Source: Gaiellaceae bacterium (GTDB lineage: Bacteria > Actinomycetota > Thermoleophilia > Gaiellales > Gaiellaceae). From it: a DNA stretch of 56,967 nucleotides. Shown piece by piece: positions 1 to 23,915 of the stretch. Location: NCBI GenBank assembly GCA_036505325.1, contig DASXTR010000218.1, forward strand, positions 1-56,967. The letters run 5' to 3'. The position numbers were made by a program, and so were the translations under genes. Position 1 is the stretch's first letter. Each line of letters opens with the position of its first letter. The notes under the pieces are model-generated. The model saw only the letters and a list, made by a program, of their open reading frames with translations. It was not told the origin of the DNA and searched no databases.

Positions 1-117
1 GTACGGCGTCCGCGAGAACGGCGCGTTGACGACCACGAGCAGTTTCTGCCGCTTGTCGTCGCTCCCGCCGCAGCCCGCGAGCAGCGCGACCAGAACGAGC
101 AGCGCCGCCCGTCTCAC
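1..117 (-). CDS. lipoprotein, first 39 codons only (probable ABC substrate-binding protein; continues beyond window)
   Basis: GTG at 117 overlaps the stop of the upstream gene (GTGA). It translates VRRAALLVLVALLAGCGGSDDKRQ..., a signal peptide plus lipobox LAGC. It lies downstream of livH/livMG-type genes. Confidence 0.5.
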   Translation of the reverse strand, partial: MRRAALLVLVALLAGCGGSDDKRQKLLVVVNAPFSRTPY

Positions 118-1853
118 AGCGTCTGCCTCCCGAGATAGGCCTCGCGCACGCGCGCATCTTCGCCGACGGCCGTCGGCGTCCCGCGGGCGATCACGCGGCC
201 GGCGTCGAGTGCGACCACGCGGTCTGCGACGGCACTCACGAGCCGCAGGTTGTGCTCGACGACGAGCAGCGCGACGCCTTCGTCGCGCAGGCTGCGCAGC
301 ACGGCGGCGAGGCGGTCGACCTCCGCGCGCGCGGCGCCTGCGGACGGCTCGTCGAGCAGGAGCGCCCCGGCGCGCGTCGCGTAGGCGGCGGCGATCATCA
401 GCAGGCGCTGGTCGGCGCCGGACAGCTGCGCCGCGTCGACGTCCGCACGATCTCCCAGGCCGAAGCGCGCGAGCAGGTCGCGGGCGCGGGCCGTCTCCTC
501 GTCCTCCTCGCGGCGCGCTTTCGGCGTGGCGACCGCGGTGCGGACCGCGCCGCCGAACCGGCGGTGCGCGGCCGAGGCGACGAGCACGTGCTCGAGCGCG
601 GTCAACCCGCCGAACGTCGCCGTCGCCTGGAGCGTGCGCACGACGCCGCCCTCGGCGCGGACCGTGCCCGCGTCGGGCGTCTCGGCGCCGGCGAGCAGGC
701 GCAGCGCGGTCGTCTTCCCGGATCCGTTCGGCCCGATCAGCGCCGCGATCTCTCCCGGCACGACATCGAGGTCGAGCCCCTCGAGCGCCACGAGCTCCCC
801 GTACCGCCTCCCGAGCCCGCGCGCCTTCACAACCCCTTGTGACAAGTTGTCACAAGGGTCAGGGGGAGACGCCGCGGTTCCGGCGCGGCGCCGCTTCGGA
901 GCGCGCAGAAGGCCTTCGCCGCCCAACGAGAGCACCGCGAGGAGGAGCACCGCCGCGAGGAGCGGGTGGAAGCGCGCGCTCGAGACGCCCTCGAGCCGGC
1001 CGACGGCGTCCGCGGCGAGCGAGAGGACGCCGAGGACGGCGACGCCCGCAACTGGGCCGAGTGCGCTCGCGGCGCCGCCGATCAGCACCGCGACGAAGAG
1101 CTTGAAGGAGACGTACGGCGTGTAGGACGCGGTGTCGGCGACACCGGCGAGCTGCACCGCGAGGCCGCCGGCGAGACCCCCGACGGCCGCCGACGCGACG
1201 AACGCGCCGAGCCGCAGGCGCGCGACGGGAACGCCGAGCGCGGCCGCGGCCGCACGCCGTTCGCGCGCCGCGACGAGCCGAAGCCCGCCCGGCCCGCGTG
1301 CGACGGCGACGAGCACCAGCGCGGCGAGCGCGACCAGCGCGAGCGCCAGCTCGTAGTGCGCCGCGGTCGACGGCCCCGGCGGCAGGAGGATCCCCTCCGC
1401 GCCTCCCGACAGCGACGGGAACGCGCCCAGGGCGAGCCAGACGAGCCAGGCGAGGATCCACGTCGACACGGCGACGAGGCCGCGATGGAGGCGGACGAAC
1501 CCGACGCCGGTCGCGGCGCCCACGCCCGCTGCGGCGGCTGCGCCGCAAAGCGCGGCGGCGAGCGTCGGCATCCCGCCGTGTACGCGCAGCTGCGCCGCTG
1601 TGAAGGCGCCCACCGCCATGAACGCCCCCTGCGCGAGCGAGGGCATCCCCGCGACGCCGACCGCGAGCGCGAGCCCGGTCGCGGCGAGCGCGAGGTACAG
1701 CCCGGAGGCGAGATCCTCGAGGCGGGCGGCGGAGACGACCAGCGGAGCGAGCGCAGCGCCCGCGAACGCCGCGGCTGCGGCCCACGCTCGCACGTTCGAT
1801 GCGCGCCGCGCCTCCCGCGCCGCCTCGACCAGTGCGAGCGCCGTCGAGCTCAC
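114..1853 (-). CDS. branched-chain-amino-acid-type ABC transporter, fused LivM-like permease + LivG-like ATPase (579 aa)
   Basis: From ORF 114..2252; start placed at GTG 1853, which overlaps the livH stop (GTGA). The N-terminal ~330 aa are a multi-TM permease. The C-terminal ATPase has Walker A GPNGSGKTT, signature LSGADQRLL and Walker B LLLDEPSAG. There is no stop between the modules, and the junction carries the palindrome at 834-858. Confidence 0.8.
   Translation of the reverse strand: MSSTALALVEAAREARRASNVRAWAAAAAFAGAALAPLVVSAARLEDLASGLYLALAATGLALAVGVAGMPSLAQGAFMAVGAFTAAQLRVHGGMPTLAAALCGAAAAAGVGAATGVGFVRLHRGLVAVSTWILAWLVWLALGAFPSLSGGAEGILLPPGPSTAAHYELALALVALAALVLVAVARGPGGLRLVAARERRAAAAALGVPVARLRLGAFVASAAVGGLAGGLAVQLAGVADTASYTPYVSFKLFVAVLIGGAASALGPVAGVAVLGVLSLAADAVGRLEGVSSARFHPLLAAVLLLAVLSLGGEGLLRAPKRRRAGTAASPPDPCDNLSQGVVKARGLGRRYGELVALEGLDLDVVPGEIAALIGPNGSGKTTALRLLAGAETPDAGTVRAEGGVVRTLQATATFGGLTALEHVLVASAAHRRFGGAVRTAVATPKARREEDEETARARDLLARFGLGDRADVDAAQLSGADQRLLMIAAAYATRAGALLLDEPSAGAARAEVDRLAAVLRSLRDEGVALLVVEHNLRLVSAVADRVVALDAGRVIARGTPTAVGEDARVREAYLGRQTL
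834..858 (-). repeat. palindromic element family A, copy 1 (perfect 12+1+12 palindrome), inside CDS
   Basis: Plus strand reads CCCTTGTGACAA-G-TTGTCACAAGGG. In gene orientation it is read P-C-D-N-L-S-Q-G. It matches copies at 11313 and 21355. Confidence 0.9.
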
Positions 1854-2776
1854 TCGGCTGCGCCCTCCGGCTGCCGGAGCGCCCGCGCCGCGAGCAGCGC
1901 GAGGGCCAGCCCGAGCGGCACGACCTCGCGGTACGAGGGCCCCGCCCAGCCCAGGTTGGCGATCGCGGCCTCGAGCAGGCCGAGCCCGACCCCGGCCGCG
2001 AAGGCGCGCCACAGCGCGAAGCGGACGACGACCGCGGCGGCGAGGCCCTTCAGCCCGAAGAGCGCGGCGGTGTCGACGTCGAACGAACCCGACGGCGCCG
2101 CGACGACCGCGGCGAGCCCGGCAACCGCGCCTGCGAGCGCGAACGCGAGCCCGACGAGCCGCGACACCGGCAGCCCGACGATCGCCGCACCCTCGACGTC
2201 GGACGCGATCGCCTCGAGTGCGCGCCCGAACCGTGTGCGCGCGAGCGTCCACGCGGCCGCTCCCGCGAGCGCGAGCGCGACGGCGATCACGAACAGCGAC
2301 CGCACCTGGATCGTCGCGCCGCCGACGTGCCAGAAGCCCTCGTCGCCGACGTCGCGGAACGGCAGCGGGTCCGGCAGTACGTACGACGGCCGGTCGAAGA
2401 CCGCGACGATCAGCGTCCGCAGCGCGAAGGCGATCGCAAGCGACGCGCCGACCCAGCCGATCGTGGAACCGCGCAACTGGTACGGCTGCACCGCGAACCA
2501 GTACGAGCCCGCCGACGCGGCGGCCGCGACGGCGAGCCCGCCGGCGAGGGCGACGAGGAAGCGGCCGCCGCCGACCGACGTCTGCGTCACGGGCGACGTC
2601 CCGGCCGCCAGGAAGAGCGTCGCGAACACCGCGAGCGCGATCAGCTCGCCGAAGGCGAAGTGCACGACGCCGGTCAGCCGGTACACGAGCGAGTGCCCGA
2701 CGCCGACGAGCCCGTAGACGGCGCCCGCCGCAAGGCCGCTGACGAGCACCTGGAGGGCGACGTCCACGCGCCGCAC
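1850..2776 (-). CDS. livH: LivH-like ABC transporter permease
   Basis: From ORF 1850..2890. It is hydrophobic with LivH-type sequence (VDVALQVLVSGLAAGAVYGLVGVGHSLVY...). Start set at GTG 2776 (GTG 2767 is an alternative), because the annotated Met at 2890 would overlap the upstream gene. Confidence 0.8.
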   Translation of the reverse strand: MRRVDVALQVLVSGLAAGAVYGLVGVGHSLVYRLTGVVHFAFGELIALAVFATLFLAAGTSPVTQTSVGGGRFLVALAGGLAVAAAASAGSYWFAVQPYQLRGSTIGWVGASLAIAFALRTLIVAVFDRPSYVLPDPLPFRDVGDEGFWHVGGATIQVRSLFVIAVALALAGAAAWTLARTRFGRALEAIASDVEGAAIVGLPVSRLVGLAFALAGAVAGLAAVVAAPSGSFDVDTAALFGLKGLAAAVVVRFALWRAFAAGVGLGLLEAAIANLGWAGPSYREVVPLGLALALLAARALRQPEGAAE

Positions 2777-5834: not shown

Positions 5835-7230
5835 GGTGACTTCGGCCCTCGGCAGGCATCTCGCGCTCGTCGGGTTCATGGGCGCCGGAAAGTCCACGCT
5901 TGGTCGCGAGGTCGCCACGCGGCTCGGACGGGAGTTCGTCGATCTCGACGAGGAGATCGGACGGCGCATCGGGAAGATCGATGAGTTCTTCCTCCGGCAC
6001 GGTGAGGCTGCGTTCCGCAACGTCGAGGCGACGACCGCGGAGGTCGAGCTCGCACGTCCGCCCGCCGTGATTGCCCTCGGCGGCGGGGCGCCGACGACCG
6101 ACGCCGTCCGCGAGCTGCTCGCATCGTGCTTCGTCGTCCACGTCGACGTCGACGTGGACACCGCCTGGAGGCGCGTCCGGGGCGGCGACCGGCCGCTGGC
6201 GCAGGACGAAGCCACGTTCCGCCGCCTGTACGACGAGCGCGCGCCGCTCTACCGCGAGGTCGCCGACGCCGTCGTCCCATCCGGCGACGTGGACGGCGTC
6301 ATCCTCGCCGCGGGCGGCGTGCATCACGAGCTCGGCGCGCTCGATCGCCTCGACGAGCTCGTCCCCGGCGACGGACCCGTCGCGCTCGTCGCCGACCAGC
6401 GCGTCCTCGGCATCCACGGGCCGCGCGCGCAGAACGCGCTCGGGCGCCGGCTGGTGCAGACGATCGACGTGCCGGCCGGGGAGGAGGCCAAGCAGCTCGA
6501 CGTCCTACGCCGGCTCTGGTCGCAGCTGAAGCTCGACCGCACCGGCACGATCGTCGCGCTCGGCGGCGGGACGACGACCGACCTCGCGGGCTTCGCAGCC
6601 GCGACCTACCTCAGGGGCATCCCGTGGGTCTCGGTTCCGACGACGCTCGTCGGCCAGGTCGATGCGGCGATCGGCGGGAAGACCGCGATCGACATCCCGC
6701 AGGGAAAGAACCTCGTCGGCGCGTTCCACTGGCCGGCGCGTGTGGTGATCGACGAGGGGTTGCTCGACACGCTCCCCGAGCGCGAGTACCGCCAGGGGCG
6801 CGCGGAGCTCGTGAAGACCGAGCTGCTCGCCGGCCGCGGCCTGGACATACGCGGGGCGGCCGCCTACAAGACGGCGCTCTGCCTCCGGGACCCGCACGAC
6901 AGAGGCCCGCGCAACGTGCTCAACCTCGGCCACACGTTCGCCCACGCGCTCGAAGCAGCTGCCGATTTCGACCTTCCGCACGGCGAGGCGGTCGCGCTCG
7001 GGCTGCTCGCGGCGCTGCGGCTCTCCGGCCGCGACACGAAGGACGTCGAGCGAGAACTCCGGCCGAAACGCGTCAACGTCGATCCCGAACGCGCGTGGCA
7101 GGCACTCCTCCGCGACAAGAAGGTGGTCGGCGATGCGATCAATATCGTTGTCTTGACTGACAACGGACCGGAGGTCAAGCGGCGATCTCCCGGCGAGGTA
7201 CGCCGGGAGCTCGAGCGGCTGATCGCGTAG
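5827..7230 (+). CDS. aroKB: bifunctional shikimate kinase / 3-dehydroquinate synthase
   Basis: Walker A GFMGAGKST, then DHQ synthase motifs LGGGTTTDLAGFAAATYLRGIPWVSVPTTLVGQVDAAIGGKTAID, in one uninterrupted ORF. GTG 5836 is an alternative start. Confidence 0.85.
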   Translation: MHKVTSALGRHLALVGFMGAGKSTLGREVATRLGREFVDLDEEIGRRIGKIDEFFLRHGEAAFRNVEATTAEVELARPPAVIALGGGAPTTDAVRELLASCFVVHVDVDVDTAWRRVRGGDRPLAQDEATFRRLYDERAPLYREVADAVVPSGDVDGVILAAGGVHHELGALDRLDELVPGDGPVALVADQRVLGIHGPRAQNALGRRLVQTIDVPAGEEAKQLDVLRRLWSQLKLDRTGTIVALGGGTTTDLAGFAAATYLRGIPWVSVPTTLVGQVDAAIGGKTAIDIPQGKNLVGAFHWPARVVIDEGLLDTLPEREYRQGRAELVKTELLAGRGLDIRGAAAYKTALCLRDPHDRGPRNVLNLGHTFAHALEAAADFDLPHGEAVALGLLAALRLSGRDTKDVERELRPKRVNVDPERAWQALLRDKKVVGDAINIVVLTDNGPEVKRRSPGEVRRELERLIA

Positions 7231-9842: not shown

Positions 9843-11642
9843 GTGCCTCGCCTGGCCGATACGACGATTCGGGTGCTCAGCCAGGAGCCGCTCGCGGGGC
9901 TGATGCCGACCTCCGAGCTCCTCCGTTTGGCCGAGATCCTCGACCGGGCCGGCTTCGCGTACCTCGAGGTCTCGGGCGGCGGTGTGTTCGACCACGCCGT
10001 CCGGCGCGGCGTCGAGAGCCCGTGGGAGCGGATCCGCGCGCTGAAGGCGCGGACGAAGACGCCCCTCGCGCTCGCGATCCGCGGGCGGTTCCTGGTCGGC
10101 TCGCGCCCCGTCAGCCGCGACCTCGCGCGCAGGTTCGTGGCGAGCGCGGCCGAGAGCGGCATCGACGTCTTCCGCATCCACGATCCGCTGAACGACGTCG
10201 ACAACCTCCGCGAGCCGGCCGAGGCGATCGTCAACGCCGGCCGGGAGTTCGAGGCGGGCCTCCTGTACGGCAGCGGCCGCCGCGAGGCGCTGATCGAGGC
10301 CGCACGGAAGCTGCCCGAGCTCGGTGCCTGGCGAATCCTGCTCCACGACGAGTCCGGCCTGCTGCTGCCGCACCGCGCGAGCGAGCTCGTCGCGGAGCTG
10401 CGCGACGTCGCCGGCCTCCCGGTCGGCCTCTACAACCAGGGCGCCGCCGGCATGGCCCTCGCGACGGCCCTCGAGGCGGTGCGCGCCGGCGCGGACCTCG
10501 TCGCGTGCGCCGTCTACCCGGTCGCCCTGACCGTCCATCGCGTGGGCGCGGAGGCGGCCGCGCAGGCGCTGGCCGGGCTGGGGCTCGACCCGGGAATCGA
10601 CGTCGACGTCCTGTGGCGGGCGTCCGATGTCGTCGACGAGTACATCGGCGACGCACCCGTCGTGCCGCTGGCGCCCCGGATCGCCGTGCGCGCCGCCGAG
10701 CACAAGCTTCCGGTCGGGCTCGTCGGCGCGCTCGACGTGCAGCTTCACTCACAGGCGGCCGGCGATCGGCTCGACGAGGTGCTGGACGAAGTCGATCGCG
10801 TCCGGCAGGAGGCCGGCTCGCCTCCGCTGTCCGCGCCGATCGGCCAGATCGTCGGCTCGCAGGCGCTCCTGAACGTGCTCGGTGCCAACCGCTACGGGAC
10901 GATGGTCGACGAGCTGCGCGAGCTCGCCGCCGGGCGGTTCGGCCGCACGCCGGGTCCGATCGACCCCGGCCTCGAGCGGGCGGTCGAGCTGCTCGGCGGG
11001 GCCCCGGTCGACGACGCCTCCAACCTGGACGAGCTCCGGCGCGACGCCGAGGGGCTCGCCGCGAGCGAGGAGGAGCTCTTGCTCCTCGCCCTCTTCGGCG
11101 AGGAGGCGGAGCCGCTCCTGCGCGCGATTCGCGGCCGCTCGGAAGGCGAGGAGACGCTCGCCGCCGGCGGCGTCGACCAGAAGCGCGCCGAGGTGATCCG
11201 GGAGGTCGTGCGGATCGTCCAGGAGACCGGCGTGGGCGAGATCACGATCGAGGAAGGCGGCATGCGCGTGAGCGTGCGCCACACGATCCCGGGCCCCGGC
11301 GGCGTCCAGGGCGCTAGTGACAACTTGTCACAAGGGCAGGAGACCTCCGCGCTGCCTGTTTCCCCGCGGGACAACGGCTTCGTCCGGGTCGAGAGCCCGA
11401 TGGTCGGAACCTTCTACCGCGCGCCGCAGCCGGGCGCGCCGCCATTCGTCGAGGAGGGCGACGCCGTCGCGCCCGGGCAGACGCTCTGCATCCTCGAGGC
11501 GATGAAACTGATGAACGAGGTCAAGGCGGAGATCGAGTGCGTCGTGCGCAGGATCCACCCCGCGAACGCCGAGCCCGTCGAATACGGCCAGCTCTTGTTC
11601 GAACTGGAACCGATCAACGATCGGCCGCTCGACGCCGTCTGA
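9843..11642 (+). CDS. OadA/PycB-like carboxyltransferase domain (metal ligands lost) fused to AccB-type biotin carboxyl carrier domain
   Basis: The N-terminal ~480 aa align by eye with the oxaloacetate decarboxylase alpha / pyruvate carboxylase B TIM barrel (DVFRIHDPLND etc.). The C-terminal part, VESPMVGTFYRAPQPGAPPFVEEGDAVAPGQTLCILEAMKLMNEV, is AccB-like with the biotin Lys in EAMKLM. Palindrome copy 2 lies in the linker. Confidence 0.8.
   Translation: MPRLADTTIRVLSQEPLAGLMPTSELLRLAEILDRAGFAYLEVSGGGVFDHAVRRGVESPWERIRALKARTKTPLALAIRGRFLVGSRPVSRDLARRFVASAAESGIDVFRIHDPLNDVDNLREPAEAIVNAGREFEAGLLYGSGRREALIEAARKLPELGAWRILLHDESGLLLPHRASELVAELRDVAGLPVGLYNQGAAGMALATALEAVRAGADLVACAVYPVALTVHRVGAEAAAQALAGLGLDPGIDVDVLWRASDVVDEYIGDAPVVPLAPRIAVRAAEHKLPVGLVGALDVQLHSQAAGDRLDEVLDEVDRVRQEAGSPPLSAPIGQIVGSQALLNVLGANRYGTMVDELRELAAGRFGRTPGPIDPGLERAVELLGGAPVDDASNLDELRRDAEGLAASEEELLLLALFGEEAEPLLRAIRGRSEGEETLAAGGVDQKRAEVIREVVRIVQETGVGEITIEEGGMRVSVRHTIPGPGGVQGASDNLSQGQETSALPVSPRDNGFVRVESPMVGTFYRAPQPGAPPFVEEGDAVAPGQTLCILEAMKLMNEVKAEIECVVRRIHPANAEPVEYGQLLFELEPINDRPLDAV
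11313..11336 (+). repeat. palindromic element family A, copy 2, inside CDS
   Basis: GCTAGTGACAACTTGTCACAAGGG, read A-S-D-N-L-S-Q-G. Identical over 24 nt to 21355-21378. Confidence 0.9.

Positions 11643-21069: not shown

Positions 21070-21077
<8 letters not shown>
20214..21077 (+). CDS. SteB/MctB-like membrane protein ('copper transporter' family)
   Basis: VLDFRYHVTSLVAVFFALIIGIVVGVG... followed by a coiled-coil. Start set at GTG 20214 within ORF 19404..21077. Confidence 0.7.

Positions 21078-23915
<2,838 letters not shown>

Follow-up and report, generated by a model that had tools for sequence, protein, structure and literature searches.

Three copies of one palindrome in unrelated genes

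Within a 56,967 nt contig of a Gaiellaceae bacterium (the whole stretch analysed, hereafter the window), the same palindrome is read in frame in three unrelated genes, which raises the question of whether it is kept for the peptide it encodes, for a hairpin, or for a protein that recognizes the DNA. The first-pass annotation had compared it with the Rickettsia palindromic elements (RPEs), naming an intragenic operator and an mRNA hairpin as alternatives. The copies share the core GTGACAASTTGTCAC with extended arms:

834-858 (core 839-853): palindrome copy 1, read in frame as PCDNLSQG, in the permease/ATPase linker of the minus-strand LivM-LivG fusion gene
11313-11336 (core 11317-11331): palindrome copy 2, read as ASDNLSQG, in the linker that joins the PYC_OADA carboxyltransferase domain to the biotinyl domain
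21355-21378 (core 21359-21373): palindrome copy 3, read as ASDNLSQG, in a variable GT2 loop just past the DxD motif

The host genes, as assigned by Pfam, are:

114-2252, minus strand: host ORF 1, LivM-type permease fused to a LivG-type ABC ATPase, its true start probably near 1850
9843-11642, plus strand: host ORF 2, oxaloacetate decarboxylase alpha / pyruvate carboxylase subunit B-like, with a C-terminal biotinyl domain (HMGL/PYC_OADA/biotinyl), followed by a biotin carboxylase gene
21070-22275, plus strand: host ORF 3, GT2 glycosyltransferase with a membrane C-terminal part, in a conserved recN-steA-mctB-GT2-pyrG neighbourhood

Much of the initial description of these copies proved correct, i.e. 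their coordinates and identities, the (C/S)DNLSQG reading in all three, and the unrelatedness of the hosts, with copies 1 and 2 located between domains (copy 2 at around aa 491-498, where the Pfam domains stop at aa 430 and restart at aa 516). Copy 1, CCCTTGTGACAAGTTGTCACAAGGG, is a perfect 12+1+12 palindrome; copies 2 and 3, both GCTAGTGACAACTTGTCACAAGGG, share all 24 nt, a minority flank included. The window contains three matches to GTGACAASTTGTCAC with up to three mismatches, versus 0.42 expected, and three to the generalised pattern GTNACANNNTGTNAC, versus 0.01 expected; an inverted-repeat scan was uninformative for so GC-rich a sequence. Also as described, copies 2 and 3 each show GC TAG TGA when read in one of the other frames. 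Since the element is palindromic, the 'same orientation' reported for the three copies means nothing beyond the identity of the single central base, which is C in gene sense in all of them, and since TGA closes one of the three frames on either strand, only two frames are ever open.

The LivM-LivG orthologues are fused and about 570-580 aa long in all of the at least 120 matches listed, and the fusion is, as judged from these sequences, ancestral in this lineage. Directly after copy 1, this gene shows a candidate internal GTG start together with an AAGGGG Shine-Dalgarno-like motif.

The first-pass annotation had asked whether the eight to nine residues are a lineage-specific insertion, for which alignments with orthologues give much smaller values: the GT2 loop at copy 3 gains three residues relative to the family-wide loop 'xSDAD', and the LivM-LivG linker at copy 1 gains two relative to the closest orthologues, the remainder of the element replacing an already present variable segment, so that neither is a clean lineage-specific insertion. 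The site is absent or degraded in close GT2 and LivM-LivG orthologues, and hybrid sequences GTGACAAAGTGTCAC occur among the variants at orthologous positions; in the carboxylase linker, the third host compared, the motif was absent from the single orthologue available, a poor-quality sequence with frameshifts. The closest LivM-LivG orthologue (L155) carries a different, perfect 16-1-16 palindrome at the same position, which hints that palindromy itself (hairpin or templated repair) may matter or arise mutationally.

Several of these observations would suit a selfish or mobile hairpin of the REP type, i.e. an element acting as ssDNA or RNA (terminator, mRNA stabiliser or transposase substrate) and spreading by copy and paste: the gain of two to three residues at in-frame sites, the identity of copies 2 and 3 down to their minority flank, the second palindrome at the LivM-LivG position of a close relative, and the predicted RNA folds of the window copies, which are stabler than those of shuffled sequences (z -2.8 to -4.1). 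An Rfam search of the window, which speaks against it, returned no matching family.

A dispersed palindrome family in the Thermoleophilia

A genome scan recovered the motif on 14 contigs, from Gaiellaceae, Thermoleophilia and Actinomycetes MAGs of independent studies, and a metagenome scan on at least 120 soil contig loci, every one with a GC content of at least 0.61. The family motif is S-C-WW-GTnACAA-S-TTGTnAC-WW-G-S with A/T-rich outer flanks (full consensus aaaa-nn-S-C-WW-GTnACAA-S-TTGTnAC-WW-G-S-nn-tttt), a unit of 21-25 bp that is AT-richer than the genome. The three window copies are members of this dispersed family, which is restricted to Gaiellaceae/Thermoleophilia actinobacteria. An assembly or linker artefact is ruled out by the occurrence of the motif, with diverged flanks, in MAGs and metagenome contigs of many independent projects. 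A longer conserved element was also considered and rejected, as recurrent k-mers past about ±18 nt represent orthologous loci, and so was an association with phages, the 16 matches on viral contigs (13 of them on low-GC contigs) being consistent with chance. Literature searches found neither palindrome 15-mer and nothing relevant on Gaiella combined with 'palindromic'.

At least 165 exact cores were counted in 0.88 Mb of retrieved high-GC loci, many of the sampled copies being orthologues of one another. Among secondary, non-ascertained copies, about 30 are exact, 11 carry one mismatch (0.02 expected) and 10 carry two (0.6 expected); nine of the 11 single-mismatch copies differ at one tolerated position, and decayed copies are rare. 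The extrapolated density is about one per 17-60 kb, and a genome would, as a rough estimate, contain from tens to the low hundreds of copies.

Copies are kept at orthologous positions across around 25 % protein divergence, yet there is also turnover, close relatives differing in their sites but retaining the genes. Doublets 42-103 nt apart and one tandem triplet were seen, as would be expected if a REP-type hairpin were spreading, whereas the paucity of decayed copies and the retention at orthologous positions are at odds with such spread.

Copies favour gene ends and permissive protein segments

Among approximately 150 copies, 38 (around 25 %) are internal and in frame and around 110 lie at gene boundaries, classes that come from a crude GC3 frame model and rest on the scoring of flank frames, because a simple gene finder based on GC3 overlooked several true genes. 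By the same model, boundary copies lie on the 3' side of genes rather than the 5' side (58 vs 20, p=2e-5) and in convergent rather than divergent spacers (15 vs 3). Most copies are located on or just beyond stop codons: 21 of the 78 incoming genes stop inside the element, which often supplies the stop codon, and 27 more stop at most 40 nt upstream. That the palindrome always lies within coding sequence was therefore a small-sample effect, and a predominance of copies outside genes, here around 75 %, is what the first-pass annotation had itself named as evidence against its proposal.

REPs have a similar distribution: most follow an ORF, in spacers of the convergent or unidirectional kind, their ends provide stop codons, and some copies are intragenic, repair genes being among the hosts (PMC3733652); the placement seen here by the crude frame model, including copies within repair proteins (Pol I and a UvrC-like protein), thus agrees with a REP-type hairpin. 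It agrees poorly with a conventional transcription-factor operator, whose regulon would include the liv transporter, the carboxylase and the glycosyltransferase. While a high-information, dyad-symmetric site is what such an operator would offer, the sites favour 3' ends and convergent spacers, are not concentrated at promoters (except for one upstream of a small orphan gene, see below), have functionally unrelated housekeeping genes as hosts and neighbours, lie deep within ORFs in the window, and turn over in close relatives whose genes stay in place. We consider this explanation highly improbable.

The in-frame copies are mostly found in linkers or variable loops, and seven of 10 in-frame hosts have the site between Pfam domains, among them Pol I, HisC-HisB, HyuA-HyuB, an ECH-HACD fusion (enoyl-CoA hydratase-3-hydroxyacyl-CoA dehydrogenase), biotin carboxylase (AccA-like) and ADP-forming acetyl-CoA synthetase (ACS). 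The frame used in the window is preferred throughout the family (29:9 among the 38 in-frame copies; 19 of 26 independent positions, p=0.03), so the claim of a shared frame survives as a preference, the second open frame, LVT(T/S)CH, being used as well. The claim of a shared orientation does not survive: the central base is G in 22 and C in 16 copies, and it flips at orthologous sites (FASDNLSQALS vs LASDKLSQALS). The encoded peptide also varies (N/K, Q/L, S/C/G).

These data bear on the RPE-like reading, i.e. an in-frame insertion whose DNLSQG peptide serves a protein function. It could appeal to the in-frame occurrence at no fewer than 26 independent protein positions with one preferred frame, and to a UvrC-like protein that contains two copies in three genomes. 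The census nevertheless largely refutes it: three quarters of the copies are non-coding, the peptide is variable and the second frame is in use, close orthologues lack the site or hold it in degraded form, the net gain is just two to three residues, and conservation acts at the DNA level, extending to the non-coding copies. We find a peptide function hardly conceivable; what remains of the likeness is a repeated palindrome with some in-frame read-through, as in RPEs or intragenic REPs.

Symmetry without hairpin-like covariation

If the palindrome were maintained as a hairpin, its arms should covary. For the WW flanks, the choice between TT and AA on the left is independent of that on the right (TT/TT 34, TT/AA 30, AA/TT 30, AA/AA 32; p=0.72), and most changes at positions 3 and 13 lack a compensating partner; only at flank positions 4-5 is there a modest symmetric correlation (z=3.8 and 2.5). 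Positions 7 and 9, which are unable to pair in a hairpin because only the single central base lies between them, vary symmetrically between lineages (A:T, C:G, G:C). In contrast, the same genomes contain a separate repeat that is a true, covarying hairpin. The absence of hairpin-like covariation combined with symmetric covariation next to the dyad favours recognition as dsDNA by a protein dimer, the palindrome being a candidate site for a symmetric dimer, and it disfavours the mRNA hairpin suggested at first. The suggestion of a site for a DNA-binding protein comes closest to the best-supported reading, as a genome-wide family and not as an operator of the host genes.

The outward T-rich flanks are symmetric, begin 2-3 nt past the arms, are the same whichever way the incoming gene runs, and are present in coding copies too. 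An intrinsic terminator was rejected on these grounds, a terminator-like call having been obtained at one site only, and the flanks also weigh against a REP-type hairpin. With the left and right WW independent, there is no target-site duplication, a further point against the REP-type hairpin. As to why AT is missing at WW, avoidance of CATG was rejected as a cause, CATG being as common genome-wide as CAAG and CTTG.

An orphan protein bracketed by the palindrome

An orphan protein of about 100 aa is encoded between copies of the palindrome. One copy lies 62-97 nt upstream of its start at 14 of 14 loci, and a second lies on or just after its stop at all 12 loci that reach the 3' end of the gene (the contigs of L095 and L127 end before it), the latter copy being degenerate in L150. 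The gene is found in three genomic contexts, i.e. trpB-trpA, between two integrase genes, and in a polysaccharide locus, and the palindrome variant beside it differs by protein lineage:

Type-1 candidate pair: protein P0391 (101 aa) with palindrome GTGACAASTTGTCAC
Type-2 candidate pair: P0437-like protein, PSYNRVR/PSYQRVR, with palindrome GTAACACAGTGTTAC

Eight upstream regions, five of them obtained via the protein and not via the motif, align with 16 invariant columns, 11 of which lie within the palindrome or immediately next to it. At the other end of the gene, the last residue is L or K in 74 of the 81 full-length members of the family, fitting C-TT-G-TGA or C-AA-G-TGA. The gene is present at eight of 134 motif-selected loci (p=7e-5 against 1 %).

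The protein, which may be DNA-binding, is predicted to consist of helices only (pLDDT 82); one of them, PSYERVRxLVHEAR, is Arg-rich and invariant. Sequence searches against Pfam, NCBIfam, PHROG, PADLOC and PDB gave no match, and Foldseek (PDB, BFVD) returned only weak similarity to HTH-type DNA-binding domains (E>0.4, nothing significant). The constant upstream copy is compatible with autoregulation, as a conventional operator would also predict; no sigma-70-like promoter match was found in the interval between palindrome and gene.

Alternatively, the gene and its bracketing palindromes could form a mobile or master unit. For a REP-type hairpin, the gene would be a REPtron-like master locus or a passenger, and there would be no dsDNA binder. 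Pfam detects no HUH/Y1 signature in the protein, and considering this together with the missing stem covariation and the symmetric covariation of positions that cannot pair, we regard the hairpin as possible, if rather unlikely.

Comparison with known systems

The Gaiellaceae element resembles REPs and REPtrons in being a short dispersed palindrome (20-40 bp in REPs, 21-25 bp here) with occasional doublets and a dedicated gene flanked by copies. One end of a REP carries an unpaired tag, GTAG or CGTC, and the survey describing REPs contains no mention of Actinomycetota (PMC3733652). In contrast, the element described here has no such tag, is perfectly symmetric, lacks covariation in its stem and has a higher AT content than its genome, and while the REPtron gene encodes a RAYT HUH/Y1 transposase, the gene flanked here encodes a 101-aa helical orphan without a Pfam match. 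It differs from MITEs, whose terminal inverted repeats are flanked by a target-site duplication, in having neither such a duplication nor internal sequence between the arms.

The RPEs share repeated palindromes in frame inside ORFs that add residues to unrelated proteins, although RPE-1 is described as consisting of longer palindromic insertions. Here, 75 % of the copies are extragenic and the net gain is two to three residues. RPEs are about 100-150 bp long and occur in alphaproteobacteria (Rickettsia); they form sequence families of their own, to which a 21-25 bp unit of high-GC Thermoleophilia does not belong.

A genome-wide signal for other machinery, to which the small protein would be unrelated, has parallels of its own; it might serve DNA uptake, segregation, nucleoid occlusion or repair, for example. 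The uptake sequences USS (Pasteurellaceae) and DUS (Neisseriaceae) are lineage-specific, over-represented motifs with A/T-rich flanks that form inverted pairs at gene ends and also occur within genes, where the reading frame is permissive and the protein segment less conserved, at about one per kb. The tolerance of the Gaiellaceae motif for location, its lineage specificity and its A/T-rich flanks are similar; however, uptake sequences are at least about 10 times denser, are not single palindromes and have no bracketed cognate gene, and we know of no competence system in Gaiellaceae. HIP1 of cyanobacteria, 8 bp long and present about once per kb, is maintained at the sequence level in coding and non-coding DNA. 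It is likewise a lineage-wide palindrome indifferent to coding, albeit much shorter and denser than the 21-25 bp motif found here about once per 20-60 kb.

Organiser proteins with dispersed chromosomal sites include ParB-parS, Noc-NBS, SlmA-SBS and MatP-matS, whose dyad-symmetric sites of at least 12-16 bp occur in tens of copies irrespective of coding; each is read by one dedicated dimeric protein, for which there is a candidate here. The matS consensus, GTGACRNYGTCAC, shares the GTGAC/GTCAC half-sites with the Gaiellaceae motif. The spacing differs: in the high-GC loci, GTGAC-N5-GTCAC was found 174 times versus once for N3, the spacing of matS. The sequence of parS is unlike the motif, and MatP, Noc and SlmA are, to our knowledge, not actinobacterial proteins. 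An unrelated machinery would also leave the bracketing of the small gene at 14 of 14 loci and its co-variation with the palindrome unexplained, and we think it improbable.

A dispersed site family with a putative binding protein of its own

Taken together, our data suggest a REP-like dispersed site family with the dedicated small protein as its putative binder and the encoded peptides as tolerated by-products, a reading to which we assign a probability of roughly 50 %. The palindrome would be read as dsDNA by a symmetric dimer, the bracketed protein being the candidate binder and possibly regulating its own gene. Function would be set by the number and spread of the sites and not by the nearby gene, chromosome organisation or a boundary or roadblock at gene ends being candidate roles. 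Were the role to lie in number and spread, selection would leave copies where they do little harm, i.e. at 3' ends, in convergent spacers, C-terminal tails, inter-domain linkers and loops. The S-D-(N/K)-L-S-(Q/L) frame may then be preferred as the more benign of the two open ones, and the DNLSQG peptide would be tolerated without being the function.

We tentatively go one step further, on sequence grounds, and propose that this may be an undescribed two-part system of the Thermoleophilia, in which a helical protein of about 100 aa reads, as a dimer, tens to hundreds of dispersed 21-25 bp sites, with its own gene bracketed and site and protein co-evolving. Such a system could be a new chromosome-organising or gene-boundary factor, or else a REPtron-like unit with a non-HUH partner.

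For genome annotation, the odd SD(N/K)LSQ peptides in linkers are footprints of a DNA element, which is also the source of many gene-end stop codons and flags permissive insertion points in proteins. The family further bears on the old question of whether REPs are selfish hairpins or maintained protein sites, two readings that the statistics separate unusually cleanly here. The Gaiellaceae rank with the most abundant of the uncultured actinobacteria in soil, and the organisation of their genomes is barely studied; in a strictly conserved palindrome and a dedicated, co-varying small protein they offer a concrete, testable candidate for a protein-DNA pair.

Three palindromes in long reading frames

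Sequence extraction and the Pfam content of the host ORFs, all of them long, confirm the positions and host genes that the first-pass annotation gave for the three palindromes of the window, i.e.:

834-858, copy 1: perfect 12+1+12 palindrome, CCCTTGTGACAAGTTGTCACAAGGG, in a fusion of a LivM-type permease and a LivG-type ATPase
11313-11336, copy 2: GCTAGTGACAACTTGTCACAAGGG, in an HMGL/PYC_OADA/biotinyl protein
21355-21378, copy 3: GCTAGTGACAACTTGTCACAAGGG, in a GT2 glycosyltransferase, in a loop just past the DxD motif

The 15-nt core GTGACAASTTGTCAC has three matches in the window even when up to three mismatches are allowed (0.42 expected), and the generalised form GTNACANNNTGTNAC retrieves the same three only (0.01 expected). 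The common reading (C/S)DNLSQG and the location of two of the three copies in inter-domain linkers were likewise described correctly. Orientation and frame are indeed shared, but this deserves less emphasis, as the orientation of a palindrome lies in its central base alone and only two frames are possible, because the frame CCC TTG TGA is closed whichever strand is read.

Pfam recognizes only GT2 residues 6-87 in the ORF at 21070-22275. Beyond the GT2 domain, the C-terminal part of the protein is a membrane region containing MraY/GT4-like motifs (NMVNQLD, GDAGSN), and this fusion is kept in 120 orthologues of around 400 aa. In the LivM-LivG ORF (114-2252, minus strand), a GTG that follows the element directly, with AAGGGG before it, could permit internal initiation of the ATPase part.

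A lineage-specific family with REP-like placement

In a scan of representative genomes, the motif turned up on 14 contigs, all from MAGs of Gaiellaceae, Thermoleophilia and "Actinomycetes" that several separate projects had assembled, and a metagenome scan with CWWGTGACAASTTGTCACWWG gave at least 120 loci, with a GC content of at least 0.61 in every locus among the matches listed. This rules out an assembly artefact. The family profile is S-C-WW-GTGACAA-S-TTGTCAC-WW-G-S, with C or G as the central base (82/82/1) and outward flanks that are T-rich at a distance of 7-11 nt from the core (44 % T vs a background of around 15 %). Exact cores predominate among copies outside the selection by the search pattern (around 30, vs 11 with a single mismatch and 10 with two mismatches), and the single mismatch lies at core position 3 or 13, giving GTnAC, in nine of 11 cases. 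The genome scan also picked up a conserved low-GC locus, shared by five Vibrio species (L002, L003, L007, L010 and L011), that contains cccttGTGACAACTTGTCACtgg, probably an unrelated operator; its half-sites are like those of matS, but its N5 spacing is not.

By codon-position GC scoring of the coding frame on each flank, a crude method (real genes escaped a simple gene finder based on it), 38 of around 150 copies are internal and in frame, while the remainder lie at gene boundaries. Family-wide, the palindrome is thus not always inside a coding sequence, as it is in the window, and the in-frame copies of the window are a tolerated minority of the family. Genes run into a copy more often than away from it (58 vs 20, p=2e-5), and the spacers holding copies are convergent in 15 cases and divergent in three. 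Of 78 incoming genes, 19 stop at the TGA inside GTGAC, two at a TAG in CTAGTGAC and a further 27 at most 40 nt upstream of the element. This placement matches the published distribution of REP elements, where the element can supply stop codons and some copies lie within repair genes (PMC3733652).

The frame seen in the window is also preferred family-wide, i.e. S-D-(N/K)-L-S-(Q/L) in 29 in-frame copies and L-V-T-(T/S)-C-H in nine (19 vs 7 by independent protein positions, p=0.03), so that a preference stands, with a second frame also in use. A fixed orientation relative to the host does not extend to the family: read in gene sense, 22 in-frame copies have a central G and 16 a central C, and this base flips between orthologous sites. 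Ten in-frame hosts examined are unrelated enzymes, with the site between Pfam domains in seven (among them Pol I, HisC-HisB, HyuA-HyuB, the enoyl-CoA hydratase-3-hydroxyacyl-CoA dehydrogenase fusion ECH-HACD, biotin carboxylase and ADP-forming acetyl-CoA synthetase); a UvrC-like protein has two copies, in three genomes. Taken together, these palindromes form a dispersed family that is lineage-specific, maintained in sequence and placed like REP elements.

Turnover at the GT2 and LivM-LivG sites

Among the 120 closest orthologues, the GT2 site is a variable loop, reading SDKVSQ, SDNVSQ or SDTVSQ in some and being 5-6 residues shorter in others. The loop consensus of 150 representatives (50 % clustering), x-S/G-D-A-D, falls three residues short of ASDNLSQG, with S-D already present. 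At the DNA level, the site reads GTGACAACCTGTCAC with degraded flanks in a 93 % identical orthologue and GTGACAAAGTGTCAC in a 79 % identical one.

The LivM-LivG fusion is ancestral, since the ORFs are fused in all 120 orthologues listed, with the palindrome present or absent. The closest of these orthologues lack the motif and have a linker two residues shorter, while those at 75-77 % identity have (R/S/C)DTVSQ at the position of copy 1, encoded by a second symmetric variant, GTGACAC-n-GTGTCAC (type 2). One LivM-LivG linker (L146) even contains three tandem in-frame type-2 palindromes (GTGACACAGTGTCAC or GTAACACAGTGTCAC; 1269, 1302 and 1335) with a period of 33 nt, encoding CDTVSQ...RNTVSQ...SDTVSQ. 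The closest orthologue with DNA (L155; 87 % identical, 86 % at the nucleotide level) has another, unique perfect palindrome of 16-1-16, TCACCGAACCTCGTCC-G-GGACGAGGTTCGGTGA (6263-6295), exactly at the position of copy 1; its right arm takes in the start region of the LivG part, as if palindromes had grown or been remodelled on a template (snap-back).

By these comparisons, both sites lie in permissive segments of variable length and are not clean insertions of eight codons. They are kept at orthologous positions and switch type with lineage, yet also decay.

Protein site or hairpin

Could the palindrome act as a hairpin, as in the mRNA-hairpin alternative of the first-pass annotation? In its favour, the window copies give better folds than shuffles, there is some symmetric correlation, if modest, at flank positions 4-5, and a different palindrome occupies the same LivM-LivG position in L155. 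However, the WW dinucleotides flanking the core are TT or AA independently on the two sides (34/30/30/32, p=0.72), with AT almost absent though CATG is not avoided genome-wide, and most of the position 3/13 variants found in type-1 genomes are non-compensatory. Positions 7 and 9 vary jointly between lineages (A:T, C:G, G:C), yet cannot pair in a hairpin because they flank one central base. The T-rich flank is symmetric, occurs in coding copies too and is independent of the direction of the incoming gene, and Rfam gave no match in the window. These patterns disfavour a hairpin and favour a symmetric dimer that recognizes the element as double-stranded DNA.

How a true hairpin repeat looks in these genomes is shown by a second palindrome, cGGTGTCwGACACCg (also GGGTCwGACCC), whose outer arms differ among copies and stay perfectly complementary. 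It is often paired, 45-120 nt apart, has no copy in the window and has the look of a genuine hairpin-type family (REP or terminator-like):

L042: 4392, 4507
L092: 3497, 3618
L124: 6458, 6504
L150: 7452, 7545
L043: 1099
L037: 991

A small orphan gene bracketed by the palindrome

A small ORF was first found in two loci, between two copies 379 nt apart. Its product belongs to a family of only 87 clusters, all around 101 aa, with no match in Pfam, NCBIfam, PHROG, PADLOC or PDB. AlphaFold predicts a confident six-helix fold (pLDDT 82), for which Foldseek gave no significant hit; its weak hits were to DNA-binding domains of the HTH type (small terminase, transposase end-binding domains, Orc1).

The upstream palindrome lies 62-97 nt before the gene start in 14 of 14 loci encoding the protein, and a second one on or just past the stop in all 12 loci reaching the 3' end (degenerate in L150; the partial loci L095 and L127 end earlier and are outside this count). 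The bracketing is the same in three contexts, i.e. between trpB and trpA, between two tyrosine-recombinase genes in a more distant lineage (L151), and in a polysaccharide locus, adjoining sugar-nucleotide genes (L152/L153). In the Gaiellaceae tryptophan operon, the gene between trpB and trpA lies at:

L149: 10001-10288
L150: 10001-10276
L154: 5983-6288, with a methyltransferase gene in between
L019: 7518-7820

Depending on the lineage, the flanking palindrome is GTGACAASTTGTCAC, GTGACAATTTGTCAC, GTAACAAGTTGTTAC, GTAACACAGTGTTAC or GTAACAGnCTGTTAC. Eight upstream regions were aligned, five of which had been obtained by way of the protein and not the motif; of the 16 invariant columns, 11 fall within the palindrome or right next to it. 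Furthermore, the last residue is L or K in 74 of 81 full-length members, which is what C-TT-G-TGA or C-AA-G-TGA would give. Eight of 134 motif-selected loci contain the gene. The near-invariant helix motif PSYERVR is PSYNRVR or PSYQRVR in P0437, P0439, P0445, P0446, P0448 and P0450, a subgroup whose single locus with DNA (n=1) has the variant GTAACACAGTGTTAC; the variant residue is a candidate for determining specificity. The stretch from the upstream palindrome to the gene contains a segment, conserved in part, that resembles GTGAC/GGAGTCGGCAC (L019 7456-7517 and equivalents); its L149 sequence is GTGACCGTTTCGTCAC, another GTGAC...GTCAC dyad but spaced differently.

The small gene is thus constantly bracketed by copies whose variant co-varies with its lineage, in contrast to the turnover at the GT2 and LivM-LivG sites, and its product is therefore the best candidate for the palindrome binder. 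Alternatively, the gene and its palindromes could form a REPtron-like master unit. The element itself belongs neither to the tagged REP families nor to the RPEs, since defining features of both were looked for and are absent, and membership of the latter, the parallel drawn initially, is not borne out. Instead, it can be classed as working like a REP or organiser-site family, which would be read on double-stranded DNA by a dimer of the small orphan protein and whose function may be independent of the neighbouring gene.
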